Positions 3,333-62,560 of a stretch of DNA of 64,000 nucleotides are shown here, piece after piece. Positions within the stretch are counted from its first letter, which is position 1; every line of letters starts with the position of its first letter. Under the pieces are notes generated by a model that had not been told where the DNA came from, did not search any database, and was given only the letters and a program-made list of their open reading frames with translations. This DNA is from Gordius albopunctatus. Taxonomy: Eukaryota. The stretch covers positions 868,001 through 932,000 of the forward strand of contig OZ193910.1 in assembly GCA_964276515.1 (NCBI GenBank), given 5' to 3'. A program made the translations under genes and the position numbers.

Positions 3333-6152
3333 TTAACATAGTCCATCGTGATGATTGCTGTGTCCGGTGCTCAAAGTTGAGTTGTTGACGGATATAGCTT
3401 TGGGTATATTAAACATTTCGGCGAAGAGAGGAGGTAGATTTAGCCTTTGCCATCTTTGTCTATACCATTGCATAGATTCATCATGACGACGTCCTAATGC
3501 CTGTAGTTCTGGGATCGTGGCTACCATATTGGAAAATAGATGTGGCTCCGAGCCGTGATTCCGACTCATTTGAAACCTGAGAGCATCTATTAAACGTTCG
3601 CGGATATCGGAGATTCTTTTAAAATCATAGCAATAAGCGTTGCTGCACCCAGAAACAACACCGGGTTCTCGTTTACCTACGGCAGATGCTAAAAGTATAA
3701 CAGCAGTGAAAAGACCTATTTCAGTATCGTTCACATTTAGAGCATTAAATGTCACGCTAAAACTATGGATGGCGTTAACTAAATCTTGCCCGTATAATAA
3801 CGCCATATGATCTCGGCTGATGTACGTCCCGTCTCCAAGGTTGAGATTACAATCGACGGGATTCAGCATACGAGCAAGGCGAACCAACCAGACTTGAAAG
3901 AAACCAGATTTCACCAAAACGAGTTGGTCGTCTTGCAAAAGATCTCCGAATCCTGGAATCCTTTTAGCGAATTCTACAACTCTCTGAATTGCCGGAGTTA
4001 CTATAGCGATTGCGTATTGTTCGCATAAAAAAACGCGCCACGCCTCTACTTGGCTCGCTTCGACTGCTCCCAAGCTAAAGGCGTTGGGAAGTGGGGATAG
4101 CGCCAAATCTACAGGCTTCCTCATTCCCATACCATTCCCCTTATGCGAGGCGGGTGGCATGATTTTATCGTCTGTGTAGGAGCAGGTGGAATGGTGTGCC
4201 TGTGAAATTGTTAAGATAATGTCGTATACACCAACGTGACTGACGTCATTTGTCGTTGACGATTGGGCAGTTTTAACAGGGCCTAAATGTGTGCTAGATG
4301 ACCTATGGGAATTATCCTTTGAATTTCCTGTAGTTGAAGCAGCTTGATTTGAATTTAACGAGGAATTAGCATTGGATGAGCTGTGGTTAAAAGTTGTACA
4401 TGCTATTTGATCCATTGGACTTAAGTCCGATTCAGCTGGCGTCTCGTTTCCGTTGTTATGAATTTGTTGGAGTTGTTGCTGCTGATTAAGTCTCCTAATT
4501 TCTTCTTCAGCTTTCTCTCTACACCGTTTAGGGACACGACCGTATCGCACAGCGTCACGCGACATCCCGACGGCTAGACATTTTTTAAACCTACAATATT
4601 GGCACCGGTTCCGATTGAGTCTAACTATGGAACATTTTCCCTCCCTCAAGCATCTATACTCAATTTGTTTTTGTATGCTACGACGAAAAAATCCTTTACA
4701 ACCTTCGCAAGAGGTTACACCATAGTGGTACCCCGAAGCGCGATCGCCGCAAACTTTACACGGTACGAATGGTTGTTTGGGACTATTGCTGTCTGCCGCA
4801 GTGACCAAATGCCTCTCAAGCATCGTAATGGCTACGGGTTGAGATGTCGAAGTGGAACAAGAATTGGATGAAAAGGATTGCGAGATGGTTAGTGTCGCGT
4901 CGGGGGGAAACTTATCCAATCCTTTTGCCGTGAAAGACGGCATTAAACCATTTTCTTGATTTTGCGAAGAAATAGATTTTCCTTTGTCGGTGCGACCACC
5001 TTGTAGGTCATCAGCTACTAGGCTACTCTTATGAACTTTGTCAACAATATCGTTGGCGGAGTTATCGTTGTAATAGTAACCCGAATTTTCTAGGGGTGAT
5101 GATAGGGGAGATGGAAAAATAGCCATTGATTGAGCAGGGCTTTGATGTATAGACATACGGCTACCGTCGAGTGATGGCTGTCTCGATACTGAAGATTGGG
5201 CAGAGGAACGGCCTTTTGATCCCTTGTTATTACCATTCTTGGGTGAATCGGTTGAGTTCGAAGCCATAATGCCATTTGGCTCGTTTGAGGCATACCTAGA
5301 CCGGTTATCGCCAAAGCCCTTCTTACCTTTCTTTTCTATATGAAATAGAGGAGCTTGTTTAGATTCAGGTCCGTTAAGAGAATTATGAGCGTGGTACGTA
5401 CCATCTAAATCATATCTTTGACCGTTCGCGCTGTTACCATTACTAACTAAGGTATGGTAGGAGGATGTTTGGTCATGGGTCGATCGGATCTGTTCAACGT
5501 CGTATAAATCAGTCATAACGTATCCCAAAGGATTTTGTGAGGAATGAGGCTCGTCTAATCCATTGATCGGTGGGATCGTCATGAAATCCGAAGTTCCGTG
5601 ATAAATTTGGGAATGCTGCTGATTGTAATAGTCGGACGTGAGACCGGCGATGTTATTTCCGTTGACTATGACCGAATGATGTTCGCTAAAACTACTTAGG
5701 TCTGGGGTGGTAAGGTGATGGTCGTTGGGGTTACTTTGAGTGTATGAATCGATAAATAAGTTTCCATCATTTTTATAGGACGCCGGTTGATGGGTTGTCG
5801 ATAACATGTGCTGTTCGTCCGATTTTATGATGCCCAACGTGTCAAGGTATTGCTGCATCATGTGATTAGAATCGAGGAGCTCTCCGACGCCAAAGGTTGT
5901 ATCATCTCCACCACAGTTCGAGCCCTCGGATAGAAGCATATTCATATTTAAGACCCCGCCGCACGATTCTTGCGATATATCGTTTAGGAATGTATGATGA
6001 TTTGATTCTCCAGCTCCCCTTGAACCAGAGCGTTCTCCCATAAAACCATTAAGTGAAGCTCCAACTTTAGTTCCGATTTCATTTTCCGCACGAAAAGAAT
6101 CGTTGCAAGATGAAGGATTTGATAAACCGTTTTGGTAGCTACTATCAGTCAT
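3333..6152 (-). CDS. E78: Nuclear hormone receptor of the E78 (NR1E, Eip78C-like) group; single coding exon, 939 aa
   Basis: C4 zinc-finger [46 protein letters not shown]...[30 protein letters not shown] matches the E78 DBD as I recall it; LBD motif [11 protein letters not shown]...DDQLVLVK and C-terminal LPPLFAEMF. Confidence 0.9.
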
Positions 6153-6694
6153 GACTGTTCAAAGGGCACAACGCTATCATTCTAACTGAGTTTGCAATAA
6201 GGTGAGGTGTAGCGGAATTATTAGGTGAGCTTTGTACTCATGTTTGTGTGTGTGTGTATCTGCGCATTAAATAGAAATCGTTTGATTACTTAAACAAAAA
6301 ATTGAAACATTTTATAAATGTGACTTAATGAACGTGGGCTTAATCATATATTGGAACATGCAACATTTCATAAGCCATTCAAATTTGGAAATAAAAATGT
6401 TTGCATAAATTTTATTAAAAAGCAAATATAGGGTTAAACGAATGCAATGTTTGAATGGCAATATTTTTTAGAAGTGATTGACACTGCACCATTGTTGTTT
6501 AACGAAATTTTAATCAAATAATTTAATCTTCTATCGTCTCAGACAAGCTAATTACAAAAAGATGATGAAAGTGTCGGTGAAAGTCTTATATATTTTAATA
6601 TTTACTAAAAATTAGAAAAAGAAATAGTTTTTATGGATCAAACCCTTATATAAATGTCTAGACTAAAAAAAGTATACACTTTTTTCATCTAGCC

Positions 6695-24562: not shown

Positions 24563-24702
24563 GGTGCCCTATCAACTCGCCGAATTTAATGTCCCCCGGT
24601 TAAAAAAGGTCCCCCATTCAACCAATCACAAAATGGGGGACCTTCTTTAACCGGGGAACATTAAATTCGGCGAGATGGTTTTCGGCAAGTTGACGGGCCA
24701 CC
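24563..24702. mobile_element. Small palindromic MITE (GGTGCCCTATCAACTCGCCGAA end); inverted copy at ~45082-45233
   Basis: TCAACTCGCCGAA / TTCGGCAAGTTGA inverted repeats and internal AATTTAATGTCCCCGGTTAAA/TTTAACCGGGGAACATTAAATT palindrome; homologous to 45082-45233. Confidence 0.75.
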
Positions 24703-27700
24703 TTGTAAATTCACTTAAGCTTTTAGAAAAATAGGTAGTTAAAGAAATAATAAACTTATGATCAATACAAAAATAAATTGTAACAGCATTTAATATAACT
24801 TTTATAAAATATAAATATCAAAATTAGTTAGTTTAATTTAAGATGATTAAGAAATACCCTTCTCCATTTAAGTAGAAAATGTATGGAAATCCAAATATTT
24901 CTTATATTTTTCATGCATAATTTATTTTTTCATTAGAGCATGCTGATAGAAATCGTCTTCAGGATATAATTTATATTCCAACTCCACACTACAATTACAG
25001 GGTTGGTGATTTTCTTGCATCGGAAGTCATCACATGTATATGGATGAGCAGTCTATTAGTCTATGATTATAATAGACAGAGGGGAAAAGGTGGAGTTTGG
25101 AACAGAGGTCAGATTTGTTGGGAATTTTCTGCCCGAACCCGGCCCGACTAAATTTTTTACTTTCATTGCCCGCCCGGGTCCACCCAAACCCATCTAAGTG
25201 TCCACCGGGGCCCGCCCGAATTGTTAAAGCTGCCTGAATTGCTCGGCCCGAAATATTAAATTTGCCCGTTAGTCTCGAATTAATGAGGTCACAAAAGAAG
25301 GTCGGAGTAGTTTAAATTTTTCTGCCCGAACCCGGCCCGGTCCAAATTTTTAACTAAATTGCCCGCCTGAACCCTTCTAAGTGTCGGCTCAGCCATGCCC
25401 AAACCATTAGAGCTGCCCGGCTTGATTAATAAAATTTTCCCGGTAGACCCGAAATTATCCAATCCCAATATCTTTCAACCACTATTACAAAATAAGCATT
25501 AAATTAATGGCATATTGATCCAAAAAAAGATGACAATATTTTATTATTCATATCGTCGACAATTTCCGTGGATAATCTTGTGCGTCTTTCCTCTATTAAT
25601 CTTTTCTTTCACTAGCAGCACTCGTCGCCGGGATGGCAAAGAGTATTTTTGTAAACCTTGCTAATTTAGGATACCTAAAATAGTTATAATTTTTAATAAC
25701 TTTAATGTGACTTGTTTGCTTTATTTTTCCACGGTGTTTTTTAGTTGTTAAGAAATTAAATGCATTACAATTATGCGCATCGTTAGAAAAAGTCTAGACG
25801 GCACACATGTGTAGTGCATTGCGAACAATGAAATGTCTTTGGCTACATAAATAATCCAATCCTTTCCATAATGGAGTAGGGCAAAGATTTAACTGAAGGC
25901 GATAAAAATGTAATAAAATAATTTACTACCAGAGAGTAAAATGGTTTCTTCCATAGTATTAGATTAGAGTAGCAGTATACATGGACGTAGCCAGCATTAA
26001 AATTAGAGGGGGGCAATAATGATTTAGGGAGGGGCAAAATGATCATATTTTGAAAATTTAGCCATAATTTTAATACATTTTAACAAATTTTTGAGTTTAG
26101 AGGGGGCAGCTGCCCCTTCCTGCTCCCTCCCCTTGTCTACGCCTATGGCAGTTTAAATCGTTGTGATTTTATTCTTTTATAATATAATCTGAAAATTAAA
26201 AATTTTTGATCTTGAGACAAACCAGTTAAACTAATTTATTCGAAATAAAATTTAATTCTGAAGAAGTTGAAATTAGGCCATTATATAAACGTACAATGAA
26301 TGAAGATTTAAGCGATGGAAAAAAATCTAGTCAAATTTATTATGGCCCAAAATTGTTTATAAGCGAATTTTTCTTTTTTCAAGGAAAATTAATTTGATAA
26401 AATTTTAGGCATGCCCGAATCTTATCAGCGTGCCCGCCCGAAAATTAAAATTTACTGGTCTCTGGTTTGGAAGCTATATTATGGTGATGAAGATAATTAT
26501 TTAATATTGAAATGAGTTTATTTAAATTATATTTTATAAAAGATTAATTTGCTTTAGTTCAATTTGACGCGGGGACGGGGGCTAAGGCCCAGCCCCATTT
26601 ATTTTATAAAATTCTAGCCAAGCCCGGACCCCGAATGGGTCGCGGTTCGGGTGACCCGTGCTCTAAAAAAACGCTTTGTCAACACGACTGTGAAACATAA
26701 ATAGCGAGCTTCACCTCTCATCCAAATATCTAAGCGTGATAAAAATCTATTGGAAATTTTATATTTTATCCACGAACCTCTCGTTATCGAAATTAAGCAT
26801 TTCTAAATATTCTGCCTTTTAGCCTCAACATTCGTTGATTTTTGATGAATAGGAAAATGTTGTATTAAATATAATTATTCCACTTGATAATTACTTTGAA
26901 AACATGATCATTTAAACGATTCTTAAATCTTTGTTTTTAACCAATGTCCTTTTAAATGATTTTAATAATCGTGGTCTTGAATAAATGTTAAGAAAAAATA
27001 TAAACTTAATAATGGATTGTTATTTCATATATTACAATATTATGATTCCTTAGTAAATGTAAAAAATAAAAAGTTTATAATCTTTTATGTGCAAAACATA
27101 TTTAAAAAAACAAAAATGGCATATACTTATTTACCTAGAGTATTAAGGCAAAAATTGCATCCCACTTAACATAAAAAAATCATTGATATATATCTTGATT
27201 ATTACTTAATAGGATTAAGAGCTGCCTGCCTATTTGGACACACTCACATTATATAACAAATGAAGAAGTTTTAAGATATAATTATGACTAATAAAGTTCA
27301 ATGATTAAGAAAATTACATTGTATAAATTAGGTTAAGATGCATTTTAAGTCAAGATTAAATTATTTTAGATACTCATATTTAATGGTAAAGGTCAAATAT
27401 TTTATAAATTTAGCCAAAGTTATTTTCTTGAATGTTTAAAAAGTAATTAAAGAATATTTAAAGAGAATATAAGCTTATTATTCTTACTTGCACATTACAT
27501 TTAAAATCTGTATTTTTATTATAAATTATTTGCTAGTGTATAGTTAAATTGTAACAATGTTTATTAACATGACTTTCTAAAGCAATATTATTAAACGCTT
27601 GAAGAATATTACCAAAGCTATAAACAATATGTAATTTATTAAACACATATAATGATATTGAATAATAAGATTTTTTCAGAAAATAATTCGAAATCATTTC

Positions 27701-29438
27701 AATCATACGGTAATTCCATAAAAATATCATCACATATTGTACAACTATTACTTTATTTCATAAAGATATACTTGGCAAATTGTATTCACTTATTCAGATC
27801 GAATTTATAATCATATTTATCATAGACTCTAATCACTTCATCACGAAAATTCAAAATAATAAAATATGACTGAATGTGAAACGGAAGAAGTACATAGGAA
27901 ACCAAAACACCACTAGCGTTTAAATTCGATTTTTTAATTTTTTAAATTTGTGGCATTAAATTTTTTGAGGTATATGCTCATTTAAACAAGCTGAAGCATT
28001 GATTATACAAATGTTCATATATCAAATATTCTATATTTATTAAAATATATCTTGTATTACAGGGAGACACTTTATATAATAAATTTTTATCTTATAAATT
28101 ATTTTAAAAAATCGAAAATCAATTAGAACCCTCTATCAAGGTTGCTTATAATTAATTTTTATAATTTAACATCTCAAATTAACTAGAAATAGTCCAAAAT
28201 AAATGAGCATGAGTGAATATAGAAATTAGAGTCAATGCCTACAATTTTAAAACATCTTTCATAGGTGCACTAATGCTTCATATATATCTATTTCTACTAT
28301 TTATAATTGATATATTTATAAAATTTGAAACAAATGACCTAAATTCATTTATAATATACTGGAGGTTATAATAATTTTTTCTTTTTAATAAACTTTCACT
28401 GTTACTATTTGAAGAATCAAATGCCAAACCTATAAATATTTAGGATATATTTTAAAGCAATTACATCAATTTTTTAAATTTTTAGTCGTTATTTGCTAGA
28501 AAGCAAACGCTCTCATTCCACTTTTCATGTTGTTTCCTTATATGAAAGCCTGTGTCCCGAAATATCTTATTCGATTTTCTCGTTACCTTACCACCATAAC
28601 ATAAATGAGGATTATCAGTTTGTGGCGCATATGGATCTTCTTTTACCGGATCATAGTATCTACGACCTCCTTTTTATCTCTGGCTCACACGCCCCTTGAT
28701 GATAGACGTAGTTTAGGCATTAGCGCTTCCTGCCTATTCTCGAGTTTCAACGCGCCTCTTCCCATATATTTTTAATCAATTCCTTTATCTAATTGCTGCC
28801 AAGCAAAAGAGGCCACTTCTCGACTGCCACTAAGAGTAGCAAGATTTAAAGCGTCTGCTTTAGGCAGGCCTTGGCTTTTACGTCGGCGATTATTTCTATT
28901 TCCCTGTTTACATATTCAGACGGTTGGCGTGGGTTCTGTCACTGTTAAAAGGGGCTTCCTCCAAAGCTTTCATAGCCGTTAGGCGTCTATGATTGGACCT
29001 GTGGGTTCCGACAGGGCATGCCCTGTTATCCCCCACAGCGTTTATTAGTTATATACTCATAAACAAAAACAACTACAGATAAGATAAGTGTAAGTATACT
29101 CATTATGAACGACGAGCGAGGTTTGACATGAATCGTGTGAACAAAGAAAAATGGCGCGCGCGTCGATAAATGTGATAGATAAATCAGCTGGTGGCGAAAA
29201 TTTATATATACTTGTAAGGAATAAATGGGAGAAAAGGTGTTATAAAGGTAAAACGTATAACGCGAAATTCCAAAGAGCGTTGGTTTAATCAGCGGTTTTC
29301 TTTATATAGGTGCGTATGGTAATGCGTGCAAGGGTTTAGTTCTGTTCTACACCTTCGTTTATGGAAATTTCGCCTCCAGCCCAAGTTCCCCAATCAAAGA
29401 GGTCCTCTTCCTCGAAAACGTCTGGGATGGTTTCGCTC

Positions 29439-31082
29439 TCAGGTGGCTCTCCCGATACTATGGACGGAACGGTGTATCTTTCGGGGGGGGAGCCAGGTAC
29501 GTGACGGGTAGTCGGCCGGGTTCTCTTCTGTCGGGATCCACTGGATATTGTACCTTATGGCTAGCAGGGCATTGAGCCCGTATTCCTTCACAAACCGTGA
29601 GATGAGCTCTTCGATAATTGGGGAGTTTGACCCCCCCTTCATAAGAACGTAGTATGCGGTTGTCGAGTCGGTGCGGATCCTAGGGAAAGGGGTCCCTCCG
29701 AATCTAGCGACCAGGTAACCATATATCGCTCCCAACGTTTCGCACAATGTGATGTGGGGATCCGGGGGGAGCGTGAAGTTGAGTGCCGCGGCTGCGTCCT
29801 CGAACGTAATGGACAAGTTGTTGGTTCCCCATGTTATGCCGATGTGTTCGTTCGATGCGTCGGTGTAGACGGTCAAGTCCGGGGGAACGTATAGTGGGAT
29901 ACGCTGTTTCAGGGATGTGACTATGGCGAGGAGCTTGAAGCAGGCATGGTTCATGTTGAATAGCCTCAAGCGGTCTGACAGATATGCGTAGAAAGGAGCT
30001 AGGAGCTTTGACATACCTGTCAGGTTGTATAGGAAGTAGTTGAGCACTCCCAGTGCTTCCAGTAGGATTTGGGTGGGTGGTGGTGTGTTGGTCGCGAAGG
30101 CGAAGAATAGTATATCAGCTGCGTATTCCAGTCTAGTGATCACCTGTGTGGTGCATCTGATTGAATGGTCGATGAATGATAGGTTCAGGCCCAGGTATTC
30201 GATGTCGCGTGTGGGGAGAATTGAGGATTTTCGTGCGTTTATCGTTAGCCGCCATTCCGAGGCTAGAGTGAACATGGATTCTAGATCCTCTTGTACGTCC
30301 GCGTGTGTGGTTCCATAGATCAGGATGTCGTCTAAGTAGACGTTATATTTACATTTGTGTACCGCCTTTTTGGTAAGGTCCGAAACAACAATTTGCAGAA
30401 CGTACGGGGAGTAGGATGCTCCCATGGGTAGGACCTTGTATCTGTATTTACGTGTTTTATATGTATAGGCGGCAAATTTGCGGGCCGATACGTTTAGCGA
30501 GATGCTGAAGAAGGCAGCTTTTAGGTCGATTTTGGCGACCCAATTTGCTCTGCTCAGCTGTCTAGATGTGAGGGGGATGGATGCCAGTTTGACGGGGTAG
30601 TGTATGTAATTTTTAGATACCTGAGAGAGGTCGGTAATTACCCTGGCATCCACGTTGGTTTTTGGAATAAAGAATGTTGCCGATTTTATTATTTCCTTCT
30701 CCGTTATTTCCACGACGTCTGCGTCGACCATCGTCTGAAAGTATTCCGGTTTCCCTCTCGATATTTCTTTTCTCCGGGACGTGAGGAATATACCATTATG
30801 TTCCCGAATTTTGTTCATATCGAATCTCGGGGTGAATCCATTCCGGGCTATCCGCCTTGTGAATGGAGATTGCGAATGATGTGGCCGAAGCTTTGAGGTG
30901 GATATGTCCAGCTGACCGGTGGGAGATGGGAGCTGGGGCTCTTTATTCCACCGGAAAATGGATTTGTGGAGGCCAAAAATGGGAAGCGTTTCCGATCCCA
31001 TTTCCCGACCGAAGGCGGCCTCCACTTGTTGTATGCACTGTTCGACTTCAGGGGCAAGAAATAATTTATTGGAATAATCCAT
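29439..31082 (-). CDS. Reverse transcriptase-RNase H polymerase with a putative N-terminal terminal-protein domain (hepadna/nackedna P-like), 547 aa
   Basis: RT: FFIPK..ARVITDLSQVS, IDLKAAFF, LPMGASYSPYVL, YLDD, EYLG; RNase H: YTDAS, HITLCE, RTDST, WIPTEENPADYPSR; N-terminal GLHKSIFRWNKEPQLPS and EYFQTMVDADVV resemble HBV TP motifs GLYSSTVPVFNPEWQTPS and T3 HYLHTLWKAGIL. Confidence 0.85.
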   Translation of the reverse strand: MDYSNKLFLAPEVEQCIQQVEAAFGREMGSETLPIFGLHKSIFRWNKEPQLPSPTGQLDISTSKLRPHHSQSPFTRRIARNGFTPRFDMNKIREHNGIFLTSRRKEISRGKPEYFQTMVDADVVEITEKEIIKSATFFIPKTNVDARVITDLSQVSKNYIHYPVKLASIPLTSRQLSRANWVAKIDLKAAFFSISLNVSARKFAAYTYKTRKYRYKVLPMGASYSPYVLQIVVSDLTKKAVHKCKYNVYLDDILIYGTTHADVQEDLESMFTLASEWRLTINARKSSILPTRDIEYLGLNLSFIDHSIRCTTQVITRLEYAADILFFAFATNTPPPTQILLEALGVLNYFLYNLTGMSKLLAPFYAYLSDRLRLFNMNHACFKLLAIVTSLKQRIPLYVPPDLTVYTDASNEHIGITWGTNNLSITFEDAAAALNFTLPPDPHITLCETLGAIYGYLVARFGGTPFPRIRTDSTTAYYVLMKGGSNSPIIEELISRFVKEYGLNALLAIRYNIQWIPTEENPADYPSRTWLPPRKIHRSVHSIGRAT

Positions 31083-31090
31083 ACTTATTA

Positions 31091-31344
31091 TTAATATATG
31101 AATTGATAGTCAAAATATCTAAAGCATAGGTGAACCAGGGCAAAATTATGGCCTGCTCTGCACGTATCCACTGCGACTTCCTCGAATTGCAGGTGCACCA
31201 TCATTAGAGGACAATATTTCCCCTTAAATAAATCTCTCAGCCTGCTGGTAAATTTCTCGAATATCCATTCCGTTGTGTTCTCTGGGCTGGCATCGTCAGT
31301 CACCACCCGGAATGCTTCAGAAGATGACTGGAACTACTTGACAT
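31091..31344 (-). CDS. Small ORF immediately upstream of the polymerase (71 aa open from GTG 31306; ~84 aa from ATG ~31344 if a 1-nt frameshift is repaired)
   Basis: Open frame VVTDDASPENTTEWIFEKF...YQFIY ends 8 nt before the polymerase ATG; an upstream ATGTCAAGTAGTTCC is one base out of frame. Confidence 0.4.
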
Positions 31345-31853
31345 ATAATATTAGCTTCCAACTACATTATAAAGAACTCTATCAAATCTCCTAACTAATA
31401 CGATTCCATATAGGTTTAGATTCTGCTCCAAGAACGCTAGCTGTTGAGGAGGACGGAAAATTTATTTAATAGGGAAAAGGGAATCGTGGATTAAACTGTA
31501 CATCTAGTACCAGAATACACGCGACGCAATACAACCAAAAAATAGAATTTTCTTATTACAAACTTAACATAACTTCACTAATAACATAGAAATATAAAAC
31601 GCATGTATACAAATAATTCGTAAACATTACTCACACGTAATCTCAGAACCTTTTGAATCCTAACAATTACAATAGAGTTTATGTCTTGGCACTTCCATAC
31701 ATCGATCTTTTCAACCGTTTTTTTTAATACTGAATGTCTTTTGTTACCTTGTTGCACCTTAGTTAAATTAAACATTTTAAATTATGGTCATATGTGATCA
31801 TGAGTTGTATATTTCAATGTCACCTTGTTTATACATTCATTAAATGTTAAAGC

Positions 31854-34053: not shown

Positions 34054-35834
34054 CTATATATCGTAAAGAGAAATTCCTTTTTGCAAAAATGTTTTAAGCA
34101 CGTCAGCTGTTGAACAGCGGGCTATGAGAGGATTCCAAATTTTATTGGGTTCGCATGGGACAGACATAGCTGTACCAGAAGCTGGGTCGCATTGAATGTA
34201 TTTTCCTGAATCGGTGGGGTCTGGAAATCGCAACAAACCCATAGACATACCTTCTTGCGTGCACGGATTGTAGGATGAAAGGCTAGGAGGTGCTATAAAA
34301 TTTCGAGATTGTTGGCCTTGTGGTATAGGAGCAAAAGGTCTATGTTGAAATGGAATTTGAGATTGCTGCTGCTGCTGAAATGCTCCGGCTGTGGGTTGGG
34401 GTTGAAAGGCGAGGCCAGCTAATTAATTTTAGGATAAATTATTTTGGTTATAGGCATTTGCCGCTTACTCGGTGGAGTTCTGGGAGGGTTCACTTTAGGA
34501 AACTGACCTTGTTGAGCACCTATAAAATTATAATGATAGAGCAAATATGAGATTTCTAGGCTATTACCTAATTGAGATCTGGGATCGAAAGGGCTTATTT
34601 GCTGTTGGAAAGCAGGGTTAGGACCTTGTGGTTGTAGTGATGATTGTTGAAATGGATTGGGTGGAAATTGTTGACCCGGTGAAGTGCCAAAAATTGAAGC
34701 AAAGCCCTGGGTCCCATCGTCGGGGGCGTTGAGAAGTTGTTTATTGATATCGTCAAGTTGGGCATTGAGTGCAGCTAAATAGGAAACGGGGTCAGTTCCA
34801 GGTGTTCCGAAAGCTACACTAGGTGGTAAACCGCCCGGGCCTTGGCTCAGGACATTTTGGGCTGGTGTTCCGAAAGCTACACTAGGTGGTAAACCGCCCG
34901 GGCCTTGGCTCAGGCCATTTTGGGCTGATGTTCCGAAAGCTACACTAGGTGGTAAACCGCCCGGGCCTTGGCTCAGGCCATTTTGGGCTGATGTTCCGAA
35001 AGCCACACTAAGTGGTAGACCACTCGGACCTTGGTTCAGGCCATTTTGGGCTGATGTTCCGAAAGCCACACTAGGTGGTAGACCACTCGGACCTTGGTTC
35101 AGGCCATTTTGGGCTGATGTTCCCAAAACTAAACTAGGTGGTAGACCGCCCGGACCTTGGTTCAGGCCACTTTGGGCTGACCCGAAGGTAGGAGGAAATT
35201 GAGATGGGCCAAAGTTTGGAGCGCTCGGAGCGGATTGAAATCCTCGTATCGCGCCGAACTGTTGATTTAGACCCGTCGGTGGGGCTTGATTATTGTCTGC
35301 GAACCAATTACTAGCAGTACTTCTCGGAGCGAACTGACCCGTTCCTGGACTCGCGCCTAGCTGTTGATTTAAACCCGTCGGTGGAGCCTGATTTTTGGTT
35401 GCGAACCAATTACTAGCAGCACTTCTCGGAGCGAACTGACTCGGTCCTGCACCTATACCAGCATTTGATTGTAGCAGAGATGAGACAACGTCGGGTGGAA
35501 CGAGGGAAGAGGGTATATCTTGACCAGTTGCCAAACCGGTGAAACCAGCTAGTTTAAGCAATTGACCAATATTTTGTGTGCTACCGCCCCCGAAAGTAGC
35601 AGTGGCCCCTGGGCTATTACTTAAATCGTTGGGATTCCAAATTCCGGTAGCCGGATTCGGGAATAAGTCCAAATTTTTTGAAGCGGTGAAGGCATCAAAC
35701 CTAGCACTATCTTGGGGATTGGCAAAAAAATTGGGACCGCTAGAGGGGATAAAAGTAGGGTTCAGCACGAAACACACCGATAATTTCAATATGGCCGCTA
35801 ATGTTAAAGCGTGGTGAAAGATGGCAAAGCCCAT
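34054..35834 (-). CDS. Secreted Gly/Pro/Gln-rich repeat protein with a C-terminal CBM14 (peritrophin-A-like) domain; exons 35834-34568, 34519-34469, 34418-34054
   Basis: Hydrophobic signal peptide MGFAIFHHALTLAAILKLSVC; two short GT-AG introns restore the frame; C-terminus NPC...FPDPTDSGKYIQC...C.P..IWNP..ARC fits ChtBD2 spacing. Confidence 0.8.
34800..35180 (-). repeat. Coding tandem repeat: about six 63-bp units (21-aa QGPGGLPPSVAFGTSAQNGLS); a further ~108-bp duplication lies at 35260-35440
   Basis: Directly visible in DNA and in the ORF translation. Confidence 0.95.
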
Positions 35835-38034
35835 TATAAGTGTTTTTATAACTTTCTAAAATATCGAAATTGGTGTACCTTTGAAAAAAATGTCCATTAT
35901 ATACCACCTTTTTTTGATTTAATTTATTTTGAATATAACGCATCCAGCATATTTATACCAAGGACTTTTAAAAGCGCGAAGCCTTTACCATTTTCCTTGA
36001 ACTGGCTAAATTTGGTTAAAGGGTGCATTTACATAAATAACTATTTTATTGGAACTTAGTAACAAGCTTAATCAGTGATTTCGATGTAACCTTGAGATTT
36101 TTGTAAATACACTAATTTCCAGCTAATTTTCAACTTTTTCTACAATTTTGATATGAGTAAAGCCAAGTCTATTTCAAGAATAATAACAAGAAATGTTAAA
36201 AACAGTTTTTCTATTTGCATAAGTATTTAGGTATAATTATTTTTTAATATTTTTTTCTATGTGTAAAACTTTTATTATTTATTTAATTCTATCTTTATCT
36301 GTACGAGATAAATTTTCTAATAAAGGTGAACGATAATATCTGAAAAATGTAAAAGAATAAAAACGGAATTTTAAAACTACAAACTTTTTTGCACATATAA
36401 GTAGAGCAAAATGGAATTTCTTCGGCATGAGCCTGACACTTTTTATTTTGCTAGACTCGAGTGCAAATTTTTTTTACTAAGGCCCTACCACACCCCAACT
36501 TTTTGAAATGTAAATTTATTTTTAAAAAAAACTTTTTCAGAATACCCACTAAAAATATTTTATCTCTAAATTTTTTAATTTAATGTTAAAATGCTTTTAT
36601 TAGGTAAAATTGATACATGAAATATACAATAAACGTGCATAAAATAATATTATAAATAAAAAATTATTCATCAGATTCATCAAAATAGCTTACTCAATAA
36701 AGGAATCAGTTACAAGTTTTAAAAAATCTTTTAGCTAGATTTTGAATTGGGCCTTGGTGAGCCGGCCCAAGATGGCCAGTGCAGCACATATAGGTAAAAC
36801 CATTTTATTTGTAAAAATGAGTTTTACTTTGTGGTCAGCACAGTGGCGTAAATATATTTTAGATCTAAAGTTTATATTTTATAGTTGTGCAGCGTAACTG
36901 ACCAAATTAATTATTTATAATGACTTTCTTTATGTTTTATACCAGATTTTATAATTTTGATGTTGAAATAAAAATGTTAGAATTTTTTTTGGGAAATCCC
37001 CCTCCCCTCGCCGGGAGAAAATCCTGGCTAGGCACCTGGGTCAGCATCATGTATTTCTCTTTGTCTACATGCTTTTACACTAAGTTTATTCCTGTTTGTG
37101 TTCATATCAAGTTTACCTGCATATCAGGTCAGTTTGACCTATCTTTTGCTTACCCTGGACTTGCACATTCTTTATAAGTTGTGCCAAGTAACTATCTGAC
37201 CTAAAAAGGTTTAATTACTAATCTTTAAAAAGAATAACCTTCAAAAAATTCACAATAAATGAGGGAATGCTAAATATTAGTTGATTAAAAAATTATAGAG
37301 TCTTGGAGTTATCTGAAGAAATTTTTAATTAACACAACTTATGAAGGCATAAATTTGACAAAGCTTTCAATGACTCATTTGCTTAGGACAACTCAATTGA
37401 ACATTTAAATATGTATATTCAAAGTTAAGAGCAAGAAAATAAACTTATGTCTGCCAGACATGATTAGATGTTTTAAAGCAAATGAGTTAAATAGCCAATT
37501 ATCACACAAAAGTTGGGGGGGGGGGTTAAAAGTATTTTAAATGAGTATGGGCAGAGTGAGGGCTTTCTAAATTGGCCCATTGCAGATCTTTCAATACACA
37601 TTTCACTCTGGCATAACTATGAGTTTAGAATCTGTTTTAGAGAATTGTATTAATTTAGATGCACTATATAAAAAAAAGTTAATTGAAAAATAATTTGAAC
37701 AATTATTTGCCAGTATCAATCAAAATTATAATTAAAAATATATTACAATATATTTGACAAATTGTATTATAGATAATGTTAAAGCTTAATCAATTTATAG
37801 CCAATTATGCCAACATCCAAATTAATTAAATTTAATTGCAAATAGATAAAGTTGATTAAAAATGAGCCTCTAGCAATTTAGTAACTTTAATTTTTATCTT
37901 TTACCTTCCCATATTATAAAATTACTCATATAATATAGTTTCTACAAAGCAAAAATTATTTCAACACCAAGCTGCTTGACGGCACACTAATTTGACCCGA
38001 AGGGCATTTTAACGGTTGCCCCAAAACGCTAATT

Positions 38035-41000: not shown

Positions 41001-44000
41001 ACTAACCAATAACGTGCAGAATCCTTGCTATACGTGCCCTGCTCGAACGTGGCCTGTTGTTTGTCACAAAGACTACAATCCGTTTGACAGGAATACTGAA
41101 TATTGTAGATTTTTTAAAAATAATATAAATCAGCGAAGCGAAAAGTGTTCTCCCCTTCCCACTCGTAGTATAACGGAAATGAATTTTTGGCCAACTTTTA
41201 CAATGGTGTTTGCTACGTTCGGCATCTTTATAATGTGTATAACCCTGATGTTTTATGTCATTAACTATAATTATATTCAATTCCGAATCGAACTTAGATG
41301 TCTTTACCATTTCCAACTGGCTGGTATAGTGCTTGGATTTGCCTCAATCTTACTACTACTACTTAGTCGTTACGTGCTACAATGTAGACTGGCACAATAT
41401 CTTGCATTCTTTGCCTGCATCTCCATATGTACCTATCAATACATTAAACTATACAGCGTCTATCTCAGTTTGGATCCAAATAAAGCTAGACAAGGTCGGT
41501 CACTGGGAAGAGGGATGCACGAAAGCGCGCTAATAGCTTTTGTCATTATTACGGTAAATTTGGTTTAAACAAACACACATTTTTTTCATATAGATGTTTG
41601 TCACATTTAGTGGTCAGCTCCTTCAAGCAGGGGTTTGAACCCGCCCAAAATAAAATCGGGTTCGGGTTTAAGGAATTGGGTTCGGGTTCAAGAAATTATA
41701 TTATACTAATAATACATTTTTACCTTCAAAAAATTATTGAATAGTTAACTTAATTTTTAAATAGCACCTAATTAAATTCACATGCCAATTATTTCATCTC
41801 ATTTACATTAAATGTTAAAGTTCATATATTTAAAGTATTTTACAATTATTATATAAATTATAGTTTAAATATAATATATGAAAAAAAAGTTATCATTAGA
41901 TGTAGATTTAATTGAATATTTGCAAATTTTTATGGAGTTACTATTAACTTTTTAAAAATTTTTATTATAATTAAAAACCATACCATAACTAATATATATC
42001 AATTAATTATATATATAATACTTACAAATAATTCTTGAGATAATTAGTATTGATTAATGAATCAAAAATGCCGAAACATAAAAATATTGAAATAAAAATC
42101 ATATGGTTTTCGTTACATTGTCATGATAGAGAAAACTGAGATATTTAATTCACAATATATTTTTGAATTAAGAAGCCGAGACCGAACCCTTTTTTGAATT
42201 CATCGGGTTTGGGTTTTAAGGGTATTTTTAAAAATGGGTTCGAGTTTGGGTTCGGGTTCTGTAAAACATCGGGTTTTACCCGGTTTGGGTTCAGGGGTTC
42301 GGGTTTGCGACAAACCCCTGCCTTCAAGTAGGTTCTCCATGTATTCCTGAACTTACACCAGCTTCGCTTTAGCTCGTACCTTCTCAAGTCCATATTTATT
42401 TTATGCTTCCATGTCAGTTTAGGTCTCCCTCTCTTTCACTTACCTTCGACTTGCACTTTCTTGATACGATTTGTCAAGTGACTTTCCTCCCATCTCTCCA
42501 AATGGCCATACCATCTCAATCTTCTTACCATCAACTTTCTCTAAATTGGAACTACATTGAGTTTATCCCTTATGTCTTGATTCCTTATATGGTCCTTTTT
42601 GCTTATTCCCAAGATCCATCTTAACATTCGCATCTCCATTGTAGCCAAGCTTTGCTTCTCTTTTGCCCTAATTGCCCAGGTTTCCGCTCCATACAATACC
42701 GCGGGTACAATAACGGTGTTATATAACCGTCCTTACAATTTAAGTGGTATTTGCTTGTCACATAGGACACCACTCCACTCCCTGCATTTTAGCCAGCCTG
42801 CGTTTATTCTTGCCTTAATTTCGTTTTCCACACCTCCATCACATTGTACCCTAGAACCAAGATATTTGAATTCTTTCCTGCTGCTTAAACACCAGTCATC
42901 GATTTGCAGGTGTGTTTCTTTGTATTCATTCCCCGACTCCAAGCATACATATTCAGTTTTATCTCGGTTGACCCTAAGGCCTTTGCATTCAATTCGTTCC
43001 ATCCACACTTTTACCTGCTCTGCTAATTCCACGTTTGAGCCTGCGCACAGGACGATATCATCCGCAAAGAGCATTGCCCAGGGTGATTCGCGTTTCAGGT
43101 CCTTCGTTATCGAATCCATTATTGTTATGAAGAGCAATGGACTTAGGGCCGATCCTTGATGCACACCGACATTTAGACTGAATCCCTTTGATGTACCACT
43201 GGATGTCCGAACTTTGGTTTTTGCTCTTCTATACATATCCTTTATTAACATTATATAAGCGTCACACCATTGGAACTCAGGCTATCCCATATCAACTGCC
43301 TTGGCACTTTATCGAAAGCTTTCTCAAGATCGATGAAACGCATATGAAGATCCTTTTGTTTTTCCCTTATATAATTCCATAAGTCTCCTAAGACCATGTA
43401 TTGCATCTGAAGTTGACTTTCCAGGCATGAAACCAAATTGTCGTTCATCTATTGATATTATTTTTCGGAGTCTAGCTTCTATAACCTTTTCCCATACCTT
43501 TATGACGTGACTCGTTAACTTTATCCCTCGATAGTTGTTGCATTCTTGTACATCTCCCTTCAATTTATAGATAGGTATAACATAGCTTTCCCTCCACTCA
43601 TCAGGCATCATACCACTTGCAAGTATTTTGTTAAACAGCTTTGCAAGTAGATGTACAACTAAGGGTCCTAGCATTTTAAAAGCTTCCATAGGTATATTAT
43701 CAGGCCCCACCGCTCTACCAATGGTCATCTTTTTAAGCACCTGGTCAACCTCTTCCTCTGTCACTTCTAACTCTGGCTGATATTCATAGGTCTTGCTTTC
43801 GCAGTGGTCCGAAAACACATTTTCACTGTTTAATAATTCTTTATAGTATTCTTCCCAACGATCTATGATTTGATGGTCCAGAGTTAGACTGATGCTTTCC
43901 TTGCTCTTTATAGATTTCACGTTTACCAGATCCTTTGAGTTCCTTGCTCTGGTCTTTGCGATTTTGCAGATCATTCTTTCCCCTTCTTTACTGGTTAACT

Positions 44001-44790
44001 TGGCATTCAAATTTTCGTAGACCTCTATTTTAGCCTTGGCTACACAACTTTTGCCTCGTTTTTTATTATGGTTCCTTAGAGGGGTTCTCGTAAACAGGCA
44101 TTAAAATGAGTTCACCTTTAATTTATATATAATCATTTTAGTCTATTTTTTGTAATATAGAATCTTACAATGGTGGCTTGCATGTTTCTGATCAAATTTG
44201 ATTTGGTAAAAGAAGAAGTAATCATTGCACAGACTGATTCCCCCGTTTACTTAGCAACTCTCGATGGTTTCAATAAGGATCCTGCTGCAATACCCTTACA
44301 AAAATCGCTTGATTTAACATCAAAATCTAATTTATCCGATACACAAAGTTTGTTTTCAAATGAAAACACGTTAAAAGCATACAACTCTGACTTAATCACA
44401 TCAAATCCAATGGTGGGGTTTGTTAATGTATATTGCGATCAATTTATTAGAGCATCCAATATATACATTTATCAAATCCTAGTTGAATCGGCCATTATTA
44501 TAGTTTCCTTTTGCTACGCCTGTATTATATTGTCGCAAGCTGGTCATCTTAGTAACATTCCATTTCGAGAGGGTCAATTTCTTGTTGTTAATCAATTTAT
44601 TTTTACCTTTCTTTATTTTCTAGGCATTCTTCTATACGTTATTTTGCCATCTGTTTCAAGCATAATAGCTATAAGTGTGTGTTTTTTATTGTATCTGTAT
44701 TCACAATTGTTGTTAGTTAACATCTCTAAAATATACCTCATGTTCTATCACATGCAAATCGAAAGCGACCCCCAAGGTATTGACCGGTAA
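38035..44790 (+). CDS. Class C GPCR (mGluR/CaSR-like); exons 38035-38317, 38586-38752, 39930-41553, 44161-44790; 5' end uncertain
   Basis: GDLYIGGL, AMVYAINVINSNP..LYNITLGYNI, ILAIIGPSSS, MPLISP, cysteine-rich domain CCWICLSC, seven hydrophobic helices with FREGQF before TM6; splice phases consistent. Confidence 0.85.
41593..44060 (-). mobile_element. 5'-truncated, frameshifted RTE LINE in the last GPCR intron, antisense, interrupted by a MITE
   Basis: Fragments GPDNIP, NYRGIKL, QFGFMPG, FIDLEKAFD, HQGSALSP, LFADD, KYLGS spread over frames 44010-42599; 3' end continues past the MITE to ~41593. Confidence 0.9.
41628..42320. mobile_element. hAT-type MITE, TIR CAGGGGTTTG, 8-bp TSD CCTTCAAG, subterminal GGGTTC repeats
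   Basis: CAGGGGTTTG at 41628-41637, CAAACCCCTG at 42311-42320; CCTTCAAG at 41620-41627 and 42321-42328. Confidence 0.92.
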
Positions 44791-55993: not shown

Positions 55994-58900
55994 ATGGAAA
56001 ATTCTGAAAATACAAAGTAACCTACACATCTATTTATACGTAATATATAGACTGATCTATCTGTTTAAATTATAAAATTTTTATACGATTTGTTTTTGAA
56101 ATTTATATATATTTATTTTAAATTTAATTTATATGGCTTTTAAACAGTTTATGATAAATAATATAATGTAATCACAAAATATTATTATATGTCCATTGTT
56201 TAAAACTAACAGTGCTAAAAATTTTAAATAAACATGACTTAATATGACTATTCTATCTTAAAATAATTTAAACTTAAATATATGATTTATGAAACCTAAA
56301 CTTGCTATTATAGGCTTTATAAGAGATAATTACAACAAATTATTTATAATATTATGATTGATTAGCTTATTAAAACTTATTTAATATGTTGATGTATTAA
56401 GTTAGTAAATTTCTTTAAATAATAGGGGTATGTCCGGGATTCCTAAATTAAACTCCCTTCCAAAACTGCCATTTTATCAACTCAAAGATGTAGCTAGACA
56501 ATCAAAATGGCCACAAAACAATGTCAATCCCACACAAACAAGAGCTCAAATTGTCAGATCTACATTGGCTGTCATCGATAACAACCTACCTTGTGCAAAC
56601 AAAAATTTGGCTATGCTCAAGGCAAAGCAATTGGTCAGGCGTAGTTTGACTACCACAAATCGTAAGAGACCTCAAGCCCCTAATACCTTGCCAACAATCG
56701 ATAAATTAGCGAAAATTGGACCTCAAACTAACACCATAAAGCGCCCAGTACCCCAGCCTATAACGGGCCGTGCTATGGCATCTAAAAAAGTGAAAGTAGA
56801 CGGTGTAATTCCTCCCAAGCTTAGCTTCACCAAAAACAAAGTTCTCACTACCGGCGATAGAATTAAAGCTCTCACCACGGAGAACGAGAAGCTAAAAATT
56901 GATTGTGAGCGTCACAAAATTGCTATGGCCAAACAAGGTTCTGAATTACGTGATCAAGGCTTAGCCTTAAAAAACGCATTAACAGCCCAACAATCATTCT
57001 CTGCCCTGCAATCTCGTTTGGAGAATGCGCTGAGCATCGAGTCTAACCTCAAAGAAGCTGCTCTTAAGGCCGAAGCTCTAGCCAGGTCCGAGCTTGGGGA
57101 TGTGACACTCGAGCGCGACGCTCTAAAATTAAGCTTGACCAACGCCGAACAGCGGGAAACAACGCTACAGCGCGACTTAGAGGTGTCACGGGCTGGCGCA
57201 ACGGAGTCTTTAAAATGTAAATTGGCTTTAGAAAATAGATGTTTTGAACTTACCCAAGCAATGGAAGCGGCTAACGCTCTACTCTCCGAGCGTCAAGCTC
57301 GTCTCGAAGCTGACCAGCATAAGCTGGAAGCTTTGGGAGAGCGTCTACGCCAAGCTGAAACCCTCAGACGCTTGATGCATAACCGCATTCAAGATCTGAA
57401 GGGTAACATCCGCGTATTTTGTCGTGTTCGACCGGCGCTGCCCTCAGATTGTAAGAGCGTCAACGCTGGTGTCGCCCAATGCGTGAGAGTTCTCGACGAG
57501 GAGCAAGGCATTTTGGAAGTCTTGAAAAATGGACAGACAGAAAATGGGCACAACGATAACTCAAACCTCTCTTCCAATAGCGACTCCACTGCAGGTTCGT
57601 TAGCTTTTTTACCTACTTCAACAAATTTAATTGGGAAAACTAGGAATTGTTTTTAACGTAAAATTAGGAAACGATCAGGTAATTTACCCAACAAATAAAT
57701 ATTATTTTTGCACTAATAATCGACCTAATATTATATAATGGATTTTCCATGTATTTTAATAATTCACCTGAATAGTCACAGTTCCCCCTTTTACTTTCCA
57801 TAATTATGCCCTTTTTTGATGCCAATCTTAAAGGCGGCGGTGATGACATGTCTATATAATAGTGTTGTAAAAACGACTGGGTTTTGTTTGCTCGACCCCT
57901 TTGGTTCAACTAAGAGACTGACGCTCGCTCCTCCCGGTCTCTTTTTCGAATTTCGACTAAGCGTAGGGGTCGATTAAGGAAAAGAGACTCGATCCAACCT
58001 CCTTTGGTACCTGTTTATGTTTAGTCGACCAATCAAAACCCAGCCCCGCCCGGGTCAGTTGATCTATAATTGTATGCTTTGTGTAATCAAAGGGTAGGTT
58101 TGTTTAGGGTTATTTGGATAAGGAATTAATTGGAAATTGGGCAGCCATGGCTATACCTTTCTCAAGTACCTTCTATACTAATGAGTTACAATCAAATCGC
58201 GATTCAAACTATGTTGTTTATCATCATTCCAAATGTTTGAGAGGTATAGCGGTTTTAAATGGGTCTTAATTTTTCGTTTATACCACGCTGCTGTGGCCAA
58301 GAAGATGCTTTCTGGCGTGCCTTTTTTGGTTTTCACATAAAACATACGTTTTTTGGTGTATATTTTTTAAAAATAATTTTGCTCCCACCCCATTTTGACT
58401 TAATATTTTCGGTGTCGGTTTGGCTTTAAACTATTCACTATGCGGAACTTTAATTTTTGTCAATTAAAAATTTATTGAAAAACTACTTTTTATGTTACAT
58501 TTAAGTCCGCTACGGAGATTACAGGCAACCACTGACAAATTAATTAGTTAAGAAAAATTGTAATTTTAACAACGCATTAGAATCTTAGTCTTCTCTTTCA
58601 ATTATTAATGCATGTGATCGTTCCGATCTCGCCCACGTGCATTTTGTAAGCACGTGATATATTACCCTACCATCCCTTGAAATAAATCTAACGGGTCGGC
58701 CTTTTAGCATGGAATCTATGACGTAAAAAGCATGTATCGGGCTATTGAATTTTTTAACCGTACAATTGCTTCGGCGTTTTAACAATGATTTAAAGGGTAG
58801 CCGTATATATTGTTTCAGTATTTTAACTAAGCTTTGAACCGTTTAAGTTTTGGTAGAGTTTTTGGAAATTAGTTAAACAATTCTACTTTTTGAATGCAGT

Positions 58901-60192
58901 TATCTCGTTTATGTCACCTCACATTTTAAACCCAGATCCTGATAAGTACACTTGAAGGCTCTTTAAAGGCAATGCTTTAAGATTTATTTTTTACGACCTT
59001 AACTTAACATCAACATTTAGTAAATTTTAGCATTCGCTTTGCATGTTACAAAATTTACTGTTTTATTTTAGCCACTCCTTCCCATATCGGAGCTTCCAAC
59101 CTCAGACCGCAGCGAATGACATTTAAATTTGATAAGACATTCGGCCCGGTGGCAACCCAAAGGCATGTCTTCGAGGAAGTATCAGACCTCGTTCAGAGTG
59201 CAATAGACGGGTACAACGTGTGCATCTTCGCTTACGGGGCAACTGGGAGTGGTAAAACGTACACGATGGAGGGCAGTGGCTGGGATGCGGATTCTCATAT
59301 CGCGATGCTGGATGGTGAAACTCAGCACGGTATAATACCACAGGCCTTTAATCTTATATTCGATGCCGTGACGCGATTGGAAAATTTACCTAACGACAAA
59401 TCAGGCGGAGATGTTAAGTACGAATTGACCGCTTCTTACGTCGAAATATATAACGAACGCTTGCGCGATTTATTGGTCCCAGTCGCCTCTACGACAAATC
59501 TGACAAGTCCAAGCTACGAAATAAAGATGGTGAACGGTGAGACGGTCATTTCGCCTCCCGTGACCTCCATTAAGGTGGTGAACGCTGATCAGGTACGCAC
59601 TATCCTGACCCGAGCGTCTGGCAATCGAGCCGTGGCCGAAACGAAGTTGAATCAGTCATCTTCTCGAAGCCATAGCGTATTTCAATTAAAAATAAAAGCT
59701 TGGACCTCTTCTAAAATTACGAGCAGCGCCGCGGAGACTTTGGATCACGGTGCTTGTTTCGTTTCGAGCACGCTGAGTCTGGTAGATTTGGCGGGATCGG
59801 AACGAATCAAGGAATCGGGATCTACGTCGGGCGACCGATTCAACGAAGCTCGCCACATCAACCAAAGCCTCTCCACCTTGAGCAACGTTATTATGGCGTT
59901 AGGAAAGGGAGAAAAGCACATTCCCTACCGAAATTCAAAGCTAACCTACCTCCTTCAAAATAGTTTGGGAGCTGGGAGCAGTAAAACTCTTATGTTTGTC
60001 AACATTTCTCCTTTGGAAGAACAAGTAGGCGAAACGCTTTGTTCTTTGCGGTTGGCAGCAAAGGTTAACACTTGCCACATCGGGGTCGCCACCAAGAAAG
60101 GACCCATCTCCAACAAAAACTCTAACTCTCATACGGAAGAAAGTGGCCCCGCATCATCTTTAAGACCTGTCACCAGGGCAGCTAAAAAATAA
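55994..60192 (+). CDS. KIFC1: Kinesin-14 (KIFC1/Ncd-like) C-terminal motor; exons 55994-56016 (tentative), 56426-57594, 59072-60192
   Basis: Basic tail, coiled coil, neck LRRLMHNRIQDLKGNIRVFCRVRP, FKFDKTF, P-loop YGATGSGKT, SSRSH, LVDLAGSE, HIPYRNSKLT; splice phases fit. Confidence 0.92.
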
Positions 60193-61710: not shown

Positions 61711-62560
61711 GCTGTTTGTCACAATTGGTGGTCAGTTCCTTCAAGTAGTTTCTCCACGTATAACTGTACTAACACGAGCTTATTTTTGGCTCGTACCTTC
61801 TCAAATCCGTATCTATTTTATGTCTACATGCTTAGGGCTCCTTCTCTTTCGCTTACCTTCGAAATGCACCTTCTTTATACGTTTAGCCAGATGACTTTCC
61901 TTTCCTCCCGTCTCTCCAAATGGCCATACCATCTCAATCTTCTTACAACCAACTTTCTCTGAATCGAAACTACATTTAGTTTATCGCTTATGTCTTGATT
62001 CCTTATATGGTCCTTTTTGCTTATTCCCAAGATATCTCTTAACATTCGCATCTGCATTGTTGCCAAGCTTTGCTCTTCTTTTGCCTTAATTACCAATGTT
62101 TCCGTTCCATACAATACCCTGGTATAATAACGGTGTTATATAACCCTCCTTCTTTCAATTTGAGTGGCATTTGTTTGTCACATAGGACACCACTCAACTC
62201 CCTGCATTTTAGCGAGCCTGCGTTTATTCTTGCCTTAATTTCACTTTCCACACCTCCATCACATTGTACCCTAGAACCAAGATATTTGAAATCCATCCTA
62301 CACCAGTCATCGATTTGCAGGAGTTGTGTGTTTTTTTGTATCCACTTCCCGACTCTAAGCATGCAAATTCGGTTTCATCTCGGTTGACCCTAAGGCCTTT
62401 GCTTTCAATACGATCAATCCACCCAGACTTTTACTTGCTCCCCATTTCAGGCAGCGCACAGTACTATATCATTCGCAAAGAGCACTGTTCAAGGTTCTTC
62501 GCGTTTCAGGTCCTTAGTTATCGAATCCATTATTGCTATAAAGAGCAATGGGCTTACGCC
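61711..62560 (-). mobile_element. 5'-truncated degenerate RTE copy of the same subfamily as 41593-44060
   Basis: FKYLGSRVQCDGGVESEIKARINAG, RLRWYGHLERRE; DNA colinear with 42330-43150. Confidence 0.88.

Follow-up and report, generated by a model that had tools for sequence, protein, structure and literature searches.

A multi-copy reverse transcriptase-RNase H family in the genome of Gordius albopunctatus: a candidate HEART-like, integrase-free retrotransposon

The HEART retroelements, reportedly defined by Gong and Han in 2018, are said to be genomic retroelements that carry neither integrase nor recombinase nor capsid. The element considered here, like HEART, is a genomic element of an invertebrate with a reverse transcriptase (RT) that may be close to that of the Blubervirales (Hepadnaviridae, nackednaviruses and proto-nackednaviruses, PnNVs); it lies on the minus strand, at 28960-31213, of a window of 64,000 nucleotides (64 kb) from Gordius albopunctatus (GenBank assembly GCA_964276515.1, contig OZ193910.1, positions 868,001 to 932,000), to which all coordinates refer, and it too has no integrase, recombinase or capsid gene, the features by which HEART is delimited. 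In an article of 2025 (PMC12440569), HEART is called ‘enigmatic’, with mobilization unresolved, few samples and RT residues often mutated. Compared with HEART, considered here by description and alignment rows only, the Gordius family is rich in copies, keeps its motifs intact and has a 3′ end that could be mapped; it would be a tractable example of this kind of element. The element would work most like HEART, and a probability of about one half is given to the reading that its family consists of HEART-like retrotransposons which lack an integrase and are probably not protein-primed. It is likely a distant relative of the hepadnaviruses, and a retrotransposon rather than an inserted virus. This reading is preferred because of the repeated unit and the flat depth across its body, the third-position bias of its variants, the lack of viral terminal protein (TP), spacer, core and direct repeats, the relatives found in the horsehair worm Gordionus, and the trees. 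As for Nematomorpha, the literature gave no such element, subscription journals and Repbase being outside the coverage, and further HEART hosts may be found in supplements.

The Blubervirales share with the element the order of RT and terminal RNase H, the latter closing with NPADxPSR, the lack of integrase and the outline of a 60-nt stem-bulge-stem-loop, which is predicted here; they differ from it in that the element has no TP, spacer, core, S gene or direct repeats DR1/DR2, is 2.25 kb long and is chromosomal. With Ngaro/PAT and DIRS elements the pre-RT motif, the RT-RNase H spacing and the RNase H end motif are in common, whereas the tyrosine recombinase (YR), methyltransferase, gag and split direct or inverted terminal repeats are missing here. 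At the level of short motifs, this open reading frame (ORF) reads YLDD where the Blubervirales have YMDD, described as fully conserved in PMC11551314. The tick HEART rows consulted, from the supplement of PMC12691608, have a T3-like helix directly before the first RT motif, as in this ORF; read by eye, these rows have YIDN or HLDN and LPFG in place of YLDD and LPMG. In the PnNV rows the gap between helix and RT is short, yet (again by eye) longer than that of this ORF.

An open frame runs at 31109-29439 on the minus strand and, with its ATG at 31082 and its stop at 29439 (29439..31082), encodes 547 aa, so that the uninterrupted RT-RNase H ORF of the original prediction is confirmed, and all the motifs quoted from it are present. 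The comparison with Pfam that had been proposed returned RVT_1 as the sole family (E 2e-27), with no match to the hepadnavirus TP (PF00242) or C-terminal (PF00336) families. The RT aspartates 186, 251 and 252 are in place, as are D408, E448 and D472 of the RNase H, with the final aspartate, D524, within the NPAD motif (residues 515-528), after which 19 aa remain; judged from the sequence, all catalytic residues are intact. An AlphaFold model built on an 8-row alignment is mostly confident for the RT palm/thumb and the RNase H, with predicted local distance difference test values below 50 at residues 1-112, 128-162 and 198-224. The ORF consists of an N-terminus of about 110 low-confidence residues, the RT (about 108-330) and the RNase H (about 400-530), without TP, methyltransferase, YR or integrase. 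Among the variant sites listed for the ORF (taken from tables of the 40 best-supported rows each, with two sites in the tail after the RNase H left out), 18 of 30 are third codon positions (p 0.002), and the RT-RNase H gene is under selection across copies.

Copies were assessed by placing on the window the contigs of two public runs, X1 and X2, which belong to one study and one of which may be the source sample, and by summing contig depth relative to the single-copy flanks. Over 29034-30886 the summed depth, a rough guide and not a copy number, is 8-23 times the single-copy level in X1 (median 12.5) and 14-38 times in X2 (median 23.5); it is flat across the body of the unit, with no 3′-to-5′ decay, and overall roughly 10-25 times single copy. 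A third run, X3, which has a small share at depth 2-7 together with pieces of the host flanks, was left aside. It steps down at both ends to near single copy in the shoulders, i.e. 1.0-2.4 times at 28380-28924 and 1.1-1.9 times at 31214-31540. Thus, of the GC-richer island of about 3 kb that had been described, the contrast in composition stands (39-50% across 28485-31535 versus 22% and 26% in the flanks), while as a unit it shrinks to the 2.25 kb repeated at about 28960-31213, which does not correspond to a unit-length, permuted 3-kb viral genome. The contigs placed number 555 in X1 and 854 in X2, most of them less than 95% alike (403 of the 555 in X1), and the element is one of many diverged copies of a dispersed family instead of the single recent integrant first proposed. 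The joins of element and host are spanned by single contigs on each side in both runs (31026-31845 and 26537-28999 in X1, 31085-31733 and 28105-28999 in X2), and the element is accordingly linked to its host flanks, as had been assumed. It is read as a germline copy of a 2.25-kb element that is present many times and codes for RT-RNase H only.

The 3′ end, at 28960-28970, is sharp and its flanks vary among copies, since unique contigs stop at 28999, 30 nt inside 28970, and at 28970 nine contigs per run depart from the window, the agreement beyond that point being only 59-64%. The 5′ end is less exactly placed: depth steps near 31213, with no loose end there among 12 of the 447 loose-end rows, and other copies might therefore extend further upstream. 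The copies have in common a leader upstream of the ATG (31083..31213, minus strand; depth 11 and 22 times in the bin 31105-31213) and an AT-rich 3′ untranslated region (29047..29335, minus strand; 8-29 times) with three TATATAA words. The GC-richer shoulder at 28485..28959, of 1.0-2.4-fold depth and without a protein match, is probably outside the unit; that at 31214..31535, of 1.1-1.9-fold depth, may be older and unrelated, or an upstream part of poor conservation. An upstream frame of 80 aa reached the cut-off of no Pfam family and had no informative match in the Atlas, and no second copy of the island or of the 3′ end is present in the 64-kb window. The word TAAA, found on both sides close to the two depth steps (28946-28954 and 31220-31228) with 5-bp inverted ends just inside, may mark an older boundary or be due to chance; little is made of it here, as the raised depth does not clearly extend that far.

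Protein priming, as proposed in the original prediction, is not borne out by the features sought in the element. Against a TP profile built on six hepadnaviruses, residues 1-150 reach -1.1 bits, a value in the range of shuffled sequences (best shuffles 4.2); the only tyrosines within residues 1-140 are Y3 and Y114, with none of the GLY type used for priming; and there is no TP-RT spacer, the T3-like helix being 16 aa ahead of the first RT motif as opposed to 216-253 aa in three hepadnaviruses. Likewise, no core gene on the sense strand matches an 11-sequence hepadnavirus core profile, and DR1/DR2 are absent, the longest exact direct repeat being 10 nt, a length reached by 99 of 100 shuffles; the earlier statement that no split direct repeats occur holds. 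These four features of the Blubervirales (TP, spacer, core and DR1/DR2) are all lacking. A 24-aa stretch on the plus strand (30646-30717) resembles hepadnavirus core helix 4b (6.6 bits) and outscored 97 shuffle sets, 55 loci and 15 other pieces of the window; it was rejected as a gene because it is on the wrong strand and closed by stops, and the likeness is probably due to chance.

Repeated endogenization of a protein-primed hepadnavirus-like virus, through linear by-products and with TP and core too diverged or outside the part that was kept, is considered unlikely in the light of these negative results, to which may be added that no circular junction or back-joint was seen among 15 of the 45 joints (contigs drop rare forms) and that IMG/VR yielded no relative of the ORF. 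Some features would nevertheless suit such an origin, namely TATA-like words and an AATAAA downstream of the ORF, a 60-nt predicted hairpin with an outline like that of epsilon, and the best template modelling scores in BFVD (0.41-0.44), which were obtained for hepadnavirus P and one unnamed entry in a database with DIRS and HEART content unchecked; in addition, RTPV is described, in PMC12691608, as likewise without a predicted core. The bulge of the hairpin, on the other hand, templates neither of the two candidates for the first four bases of the terminus. The family does not serve as evidence that a hepadnavirus has become endogenous in an invertebrate.

The hairpin in question (30966..31025, minus strand; codons 20-39) is a predicted stem-bulge-stem-loop of -30.7 kcal/mol (z -3.95, equalled by one of 500 shuffles), and is found within one of two blocks that are in excess among copies, namely 30887-31104 (28 times in X1 and 60-85 times in X2) and 28925-29033 (48 and 89 times). 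A second predicted stem-loop (30890..30969, minus strand; z -3.7 and -3.8) belongs to block 30887-31104 too and comes next in the sense direction, its windows ranking second and third among 305 overlapping 70-nt windows. At the other end, a 3′ terminal structure of 77-87 nt (28960..29046, minus strand) begins with AATAAA at 29046-29041, followed by two predicted hairpins (z -3.1 to -3.4 on the sense strand, -4.2 on the antisense strand); loose contig ends fall at 28970 and 29046, and the hairpin of the window's own copy reaches 28960 with a 5-nt bulge. Four of the five best-folding of the 305 windows are inside the two blocks. Since block 30887-31104 encodes a poorly conserved part of the protein, its conservation is probably at the nucleotide level, and the hairpin at 30966-31025 and the double hairpin at 28960-29046 are likely to be the 5′ and 3′ cis signals, respectively. 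Rfam gave no match to the structures at E up to 10, and pairing between the two blocks is no better than chance (182 of 200 shuffles as good). The excess of the end blocks might reflect shortened non-autonomous copies or distant subfamilies that retain only these signals; in each run, a single contig has matches at both 29053 and 30936, the part in between being unread.

From these parts a HEART-like cycle may be outlined. A transcript would cover the whole unit, and the RT would bind its own RNA via the predicted 5′ stem-bulge-stem-loop; reverse transcription would then begin where the 3′ hairpin has its fixed end, primed by a nucleic-acid 3′-OH that a break in host DNA or the hairpin itself would provide; the RNase H would remove the template, and host repair would complete the insertion at AT-rich sites. 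Alternatively, the RNA could be a passenger that a long interspersed element (LINE) of the host copies and inserts by way of the structured 3′ tail, in the manner of a short interspersed element, the element's own RT being incidental. The sharp 3′ end, the excess of 3′-end pieces and the presence of LINE-type RT fragments within the window are what such a route might leave behind. It is held to be improbable, given that the depth of the body does not decay from 3′ to 5′, that the ORF has a third-position bias and that the island shares no similarity with the LINE fragments of the window.

A different route is suggested by recombinase-bearing elements. The element could be an offshoot of Ngaro or DIRS that has lost its recombinase, with a circular cDNA, a YR supplied in trans and the terminal hairpins as the recombination site, a proposal that the sharp end would suit, as would a YxDD-to-RNase H distance of 158 aa, which fits the 157-158 aa of YR elements and the 163-176 aa of DIRS better than the 150-154 aa of hepadnaviruses or the 132-159 aa of stand-alone proteins. 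Furthermore, in many loci the same RNase H end motif is directly followed by a YR frame; indeed, 35 of the 120 metagenome loci found with the motif also match a YR profile made from 17 seeds, many others being too short, and because of this occurrence in recombinase-bearing retrotransposons the motif is not diagnostic. The same profile finds nothing in the 64-kb window (best E 1.5), in agreement with the earlier claim that a YR is lacking, and the region shared by copies after the RNase H, of only about 470 nt, leaves no room for a recombinase and gives no YR match. Neither a Dam match for a methyltransferase after the RNase H nor split direct or long inverted repeats at the element were found, so that the three DIRS/Ngaro features looked for (YR, methyltransferase and inverted or split direct repeats) are absent. 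In addition, the lineage is nested in the DIRS or Ngaro clades in none of five trees. Such an offshoot is thus regarded as doubtful.

The HEART-like reading is further based on relatives and trees. Only three of 1.84 billion representatives pass E 1e-30, and all three are Gordionus proteins, 38-42% identical to the ORF; a nematomorph is therefore the likely host. The Gordionus relatives (XP_065317776.1, XP_065315139.1, CAK9296137-9, CAK9300581.1 and CAK9304925.1) belong to the same lineage (100/100) and are 37-42% identical including the pre-RT region; they differ in being unnamed in databases, in several being split and in the in-frame acidic tails of four of them. They are located on four sequences of 32-94 Mb, several as pieces, and thus occupy several chromosomes of this horsehair worm. 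For the trees, 13 hepadnaviruses from IMG/VR and classes labelled by motif rules, with some mislabels, served as references, and nackednaviruses, PnNVs and published HEART sequences were not included. With FastTree on 264 RT rows the lineage joins the hepadnaviruses and stand-alone RT-RNase H proteins (Shimodaira-Hasegawa support 95), and with C20, the best model used, on 33 rows, after 12 long-branch or redundant rows had been dropped, its sister group is made up of hepadnaviruses together with unnamed stand-alone RT-RNase H proteins (94/89). It therefore groups with hepadnaviruses in two of the five trees and is outside the hepadnavirus clade itself in all five. PDB searches returned retroviral, Ty3 and caulimoviral RTs only, and two word-indexed protein searches mostly Gypsy-like proteins. 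Of the hepadnavirus kinship first proposed, what stands is membership of the same radiation of DIRS, Ngaro, HEART and hepadnaviruses; the argument from the RNase H end motif does not.

Several observations weigh against the HEART-like reading. The three IQ-TREE LG+G4 trees (67 RT, 41 RT and 45 RT-RNase H rows) do not place the lineage, which falls neither within the DIRS clade nor within the hepadnavirus group, and approximately unbiased tests reject neither a DIRS placement (p 0.113) nor a Ngaro-like one (p 0.125) nor sisterhood to hepadnaviruses alone (p 0.164); the first two values lend something to a Ngaro/DIRS offshoot and the third to an endogenized virus. Poor resolution in this region of the RT tree is likewise reported in PMC6681497. 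The RT scores 182 bits against a profile of the stand-alone proteins, 161 against one of DIRS and 29 against one of hepadnaviruses, in a comparison of profiles that differ in size. As to the unit, the two runs differ twofold in summed depth, other copies could run upstream into a shared gene that this copy has lost, and the single best-folding window (29970-30039, z -4.1) is outside both over-represented blocks.

A more far-reaching interpretation is that the family represents a pre-hepadnavirus stage, i.e. a capsid-free, integrase-free RT that selected its RNA by an epsilon-like hairpin before TP was gained, on a branch of an unnamed radiation of stand-alone RT-RNase H proteins ancestral to the Blubervirales; we consider this rather unlikely. 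If the placement beside the hepadnaviruses holds, the family bears on the question of whether an epsilon-like RNA signal predates protein priming and the capsid. Independently of this, a family that has kept its catalytic sites, occurs in many copies and offers a mapped 3′ end together with two candidate cis signals makes HEART mobilization a question that genome data alone can test.

At its 3′ side the ORF is overlapped by a minus-strand frame (29336..29554), the last 50 codons of which are acidic (26% D+E). Since it resembles the in-frame acidic tails of the four Gordionus relatives, this copy may have suffered a frame break close to the homopolymer at about 29483-29490; the alignment of the overlapping-frame tail with that of P0024 is not significant (E 0.54).

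Stand-alone RT-RNase H proteins make up a large, unnamed set, many of them with long, acidic and proline-rich N-termini, encoded on Logan, ENA and JGI contigs of 1.4-3.6 kb (P0027, P0030, P0054, P0064, P0073, P0084, P0107, P0118, P0132, P0138, P0157, P0160 and others). These proteins group with hepadnaviruses with bootstrap values of 88-92 in four trees, and three of them pass the PF00336 cut-off. The pre-RT region of P0118, the only clear match among 20 such regions, reaches 12.2 bits (E 7e-6, counted as a single comparison) against the TP profile of hepadnaviruses, and P0118 is by its sequence a possible TP-intermediate element. IMG/VR gave no relative of two stand-alone subgroups, and a further search of it gave one locus, at 24% identity. 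Frames of about 1910 aa with the same RNase H end motif are present in three loci (L138, L016 and L057), the first of which presumably resembles an integrase-bearing BEL/Pao polyprotein. Two bacterial assemblies (L136 and L144) contain fragments of hepadnavirus RNase H, likely through vector contamination.

Elsewhere in the window, a very high-copy short repeat occurs at 26000-26530 and about 33100 (summed depth above 1e6 in X1), and an inverted repeat of 46 bp around a 13-nt loop, next to other short repeats, at 24573-24677, has the appearance of a miniature inverted-repeat transposable element. The LINE-type RT fragments, which we take to be RTE-like, are at 42733-44100 (minus strand, matching RVT_1), 788-1387 and 62213-62581, the first being placed between two frames that resemble a class C G-protein-coupled receptor gene. 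Motifs of host genes, which show an animal host, further suggest that a single 941-codon frame at 3333-6158 (minus strand) is a nuclear receptor, that 56409-60192 (plus strand) encodes a C-terminal-motor kinesin and that 34419-35855 (minus strand) is a host gene for a protein with 21-aa tandem repeats.

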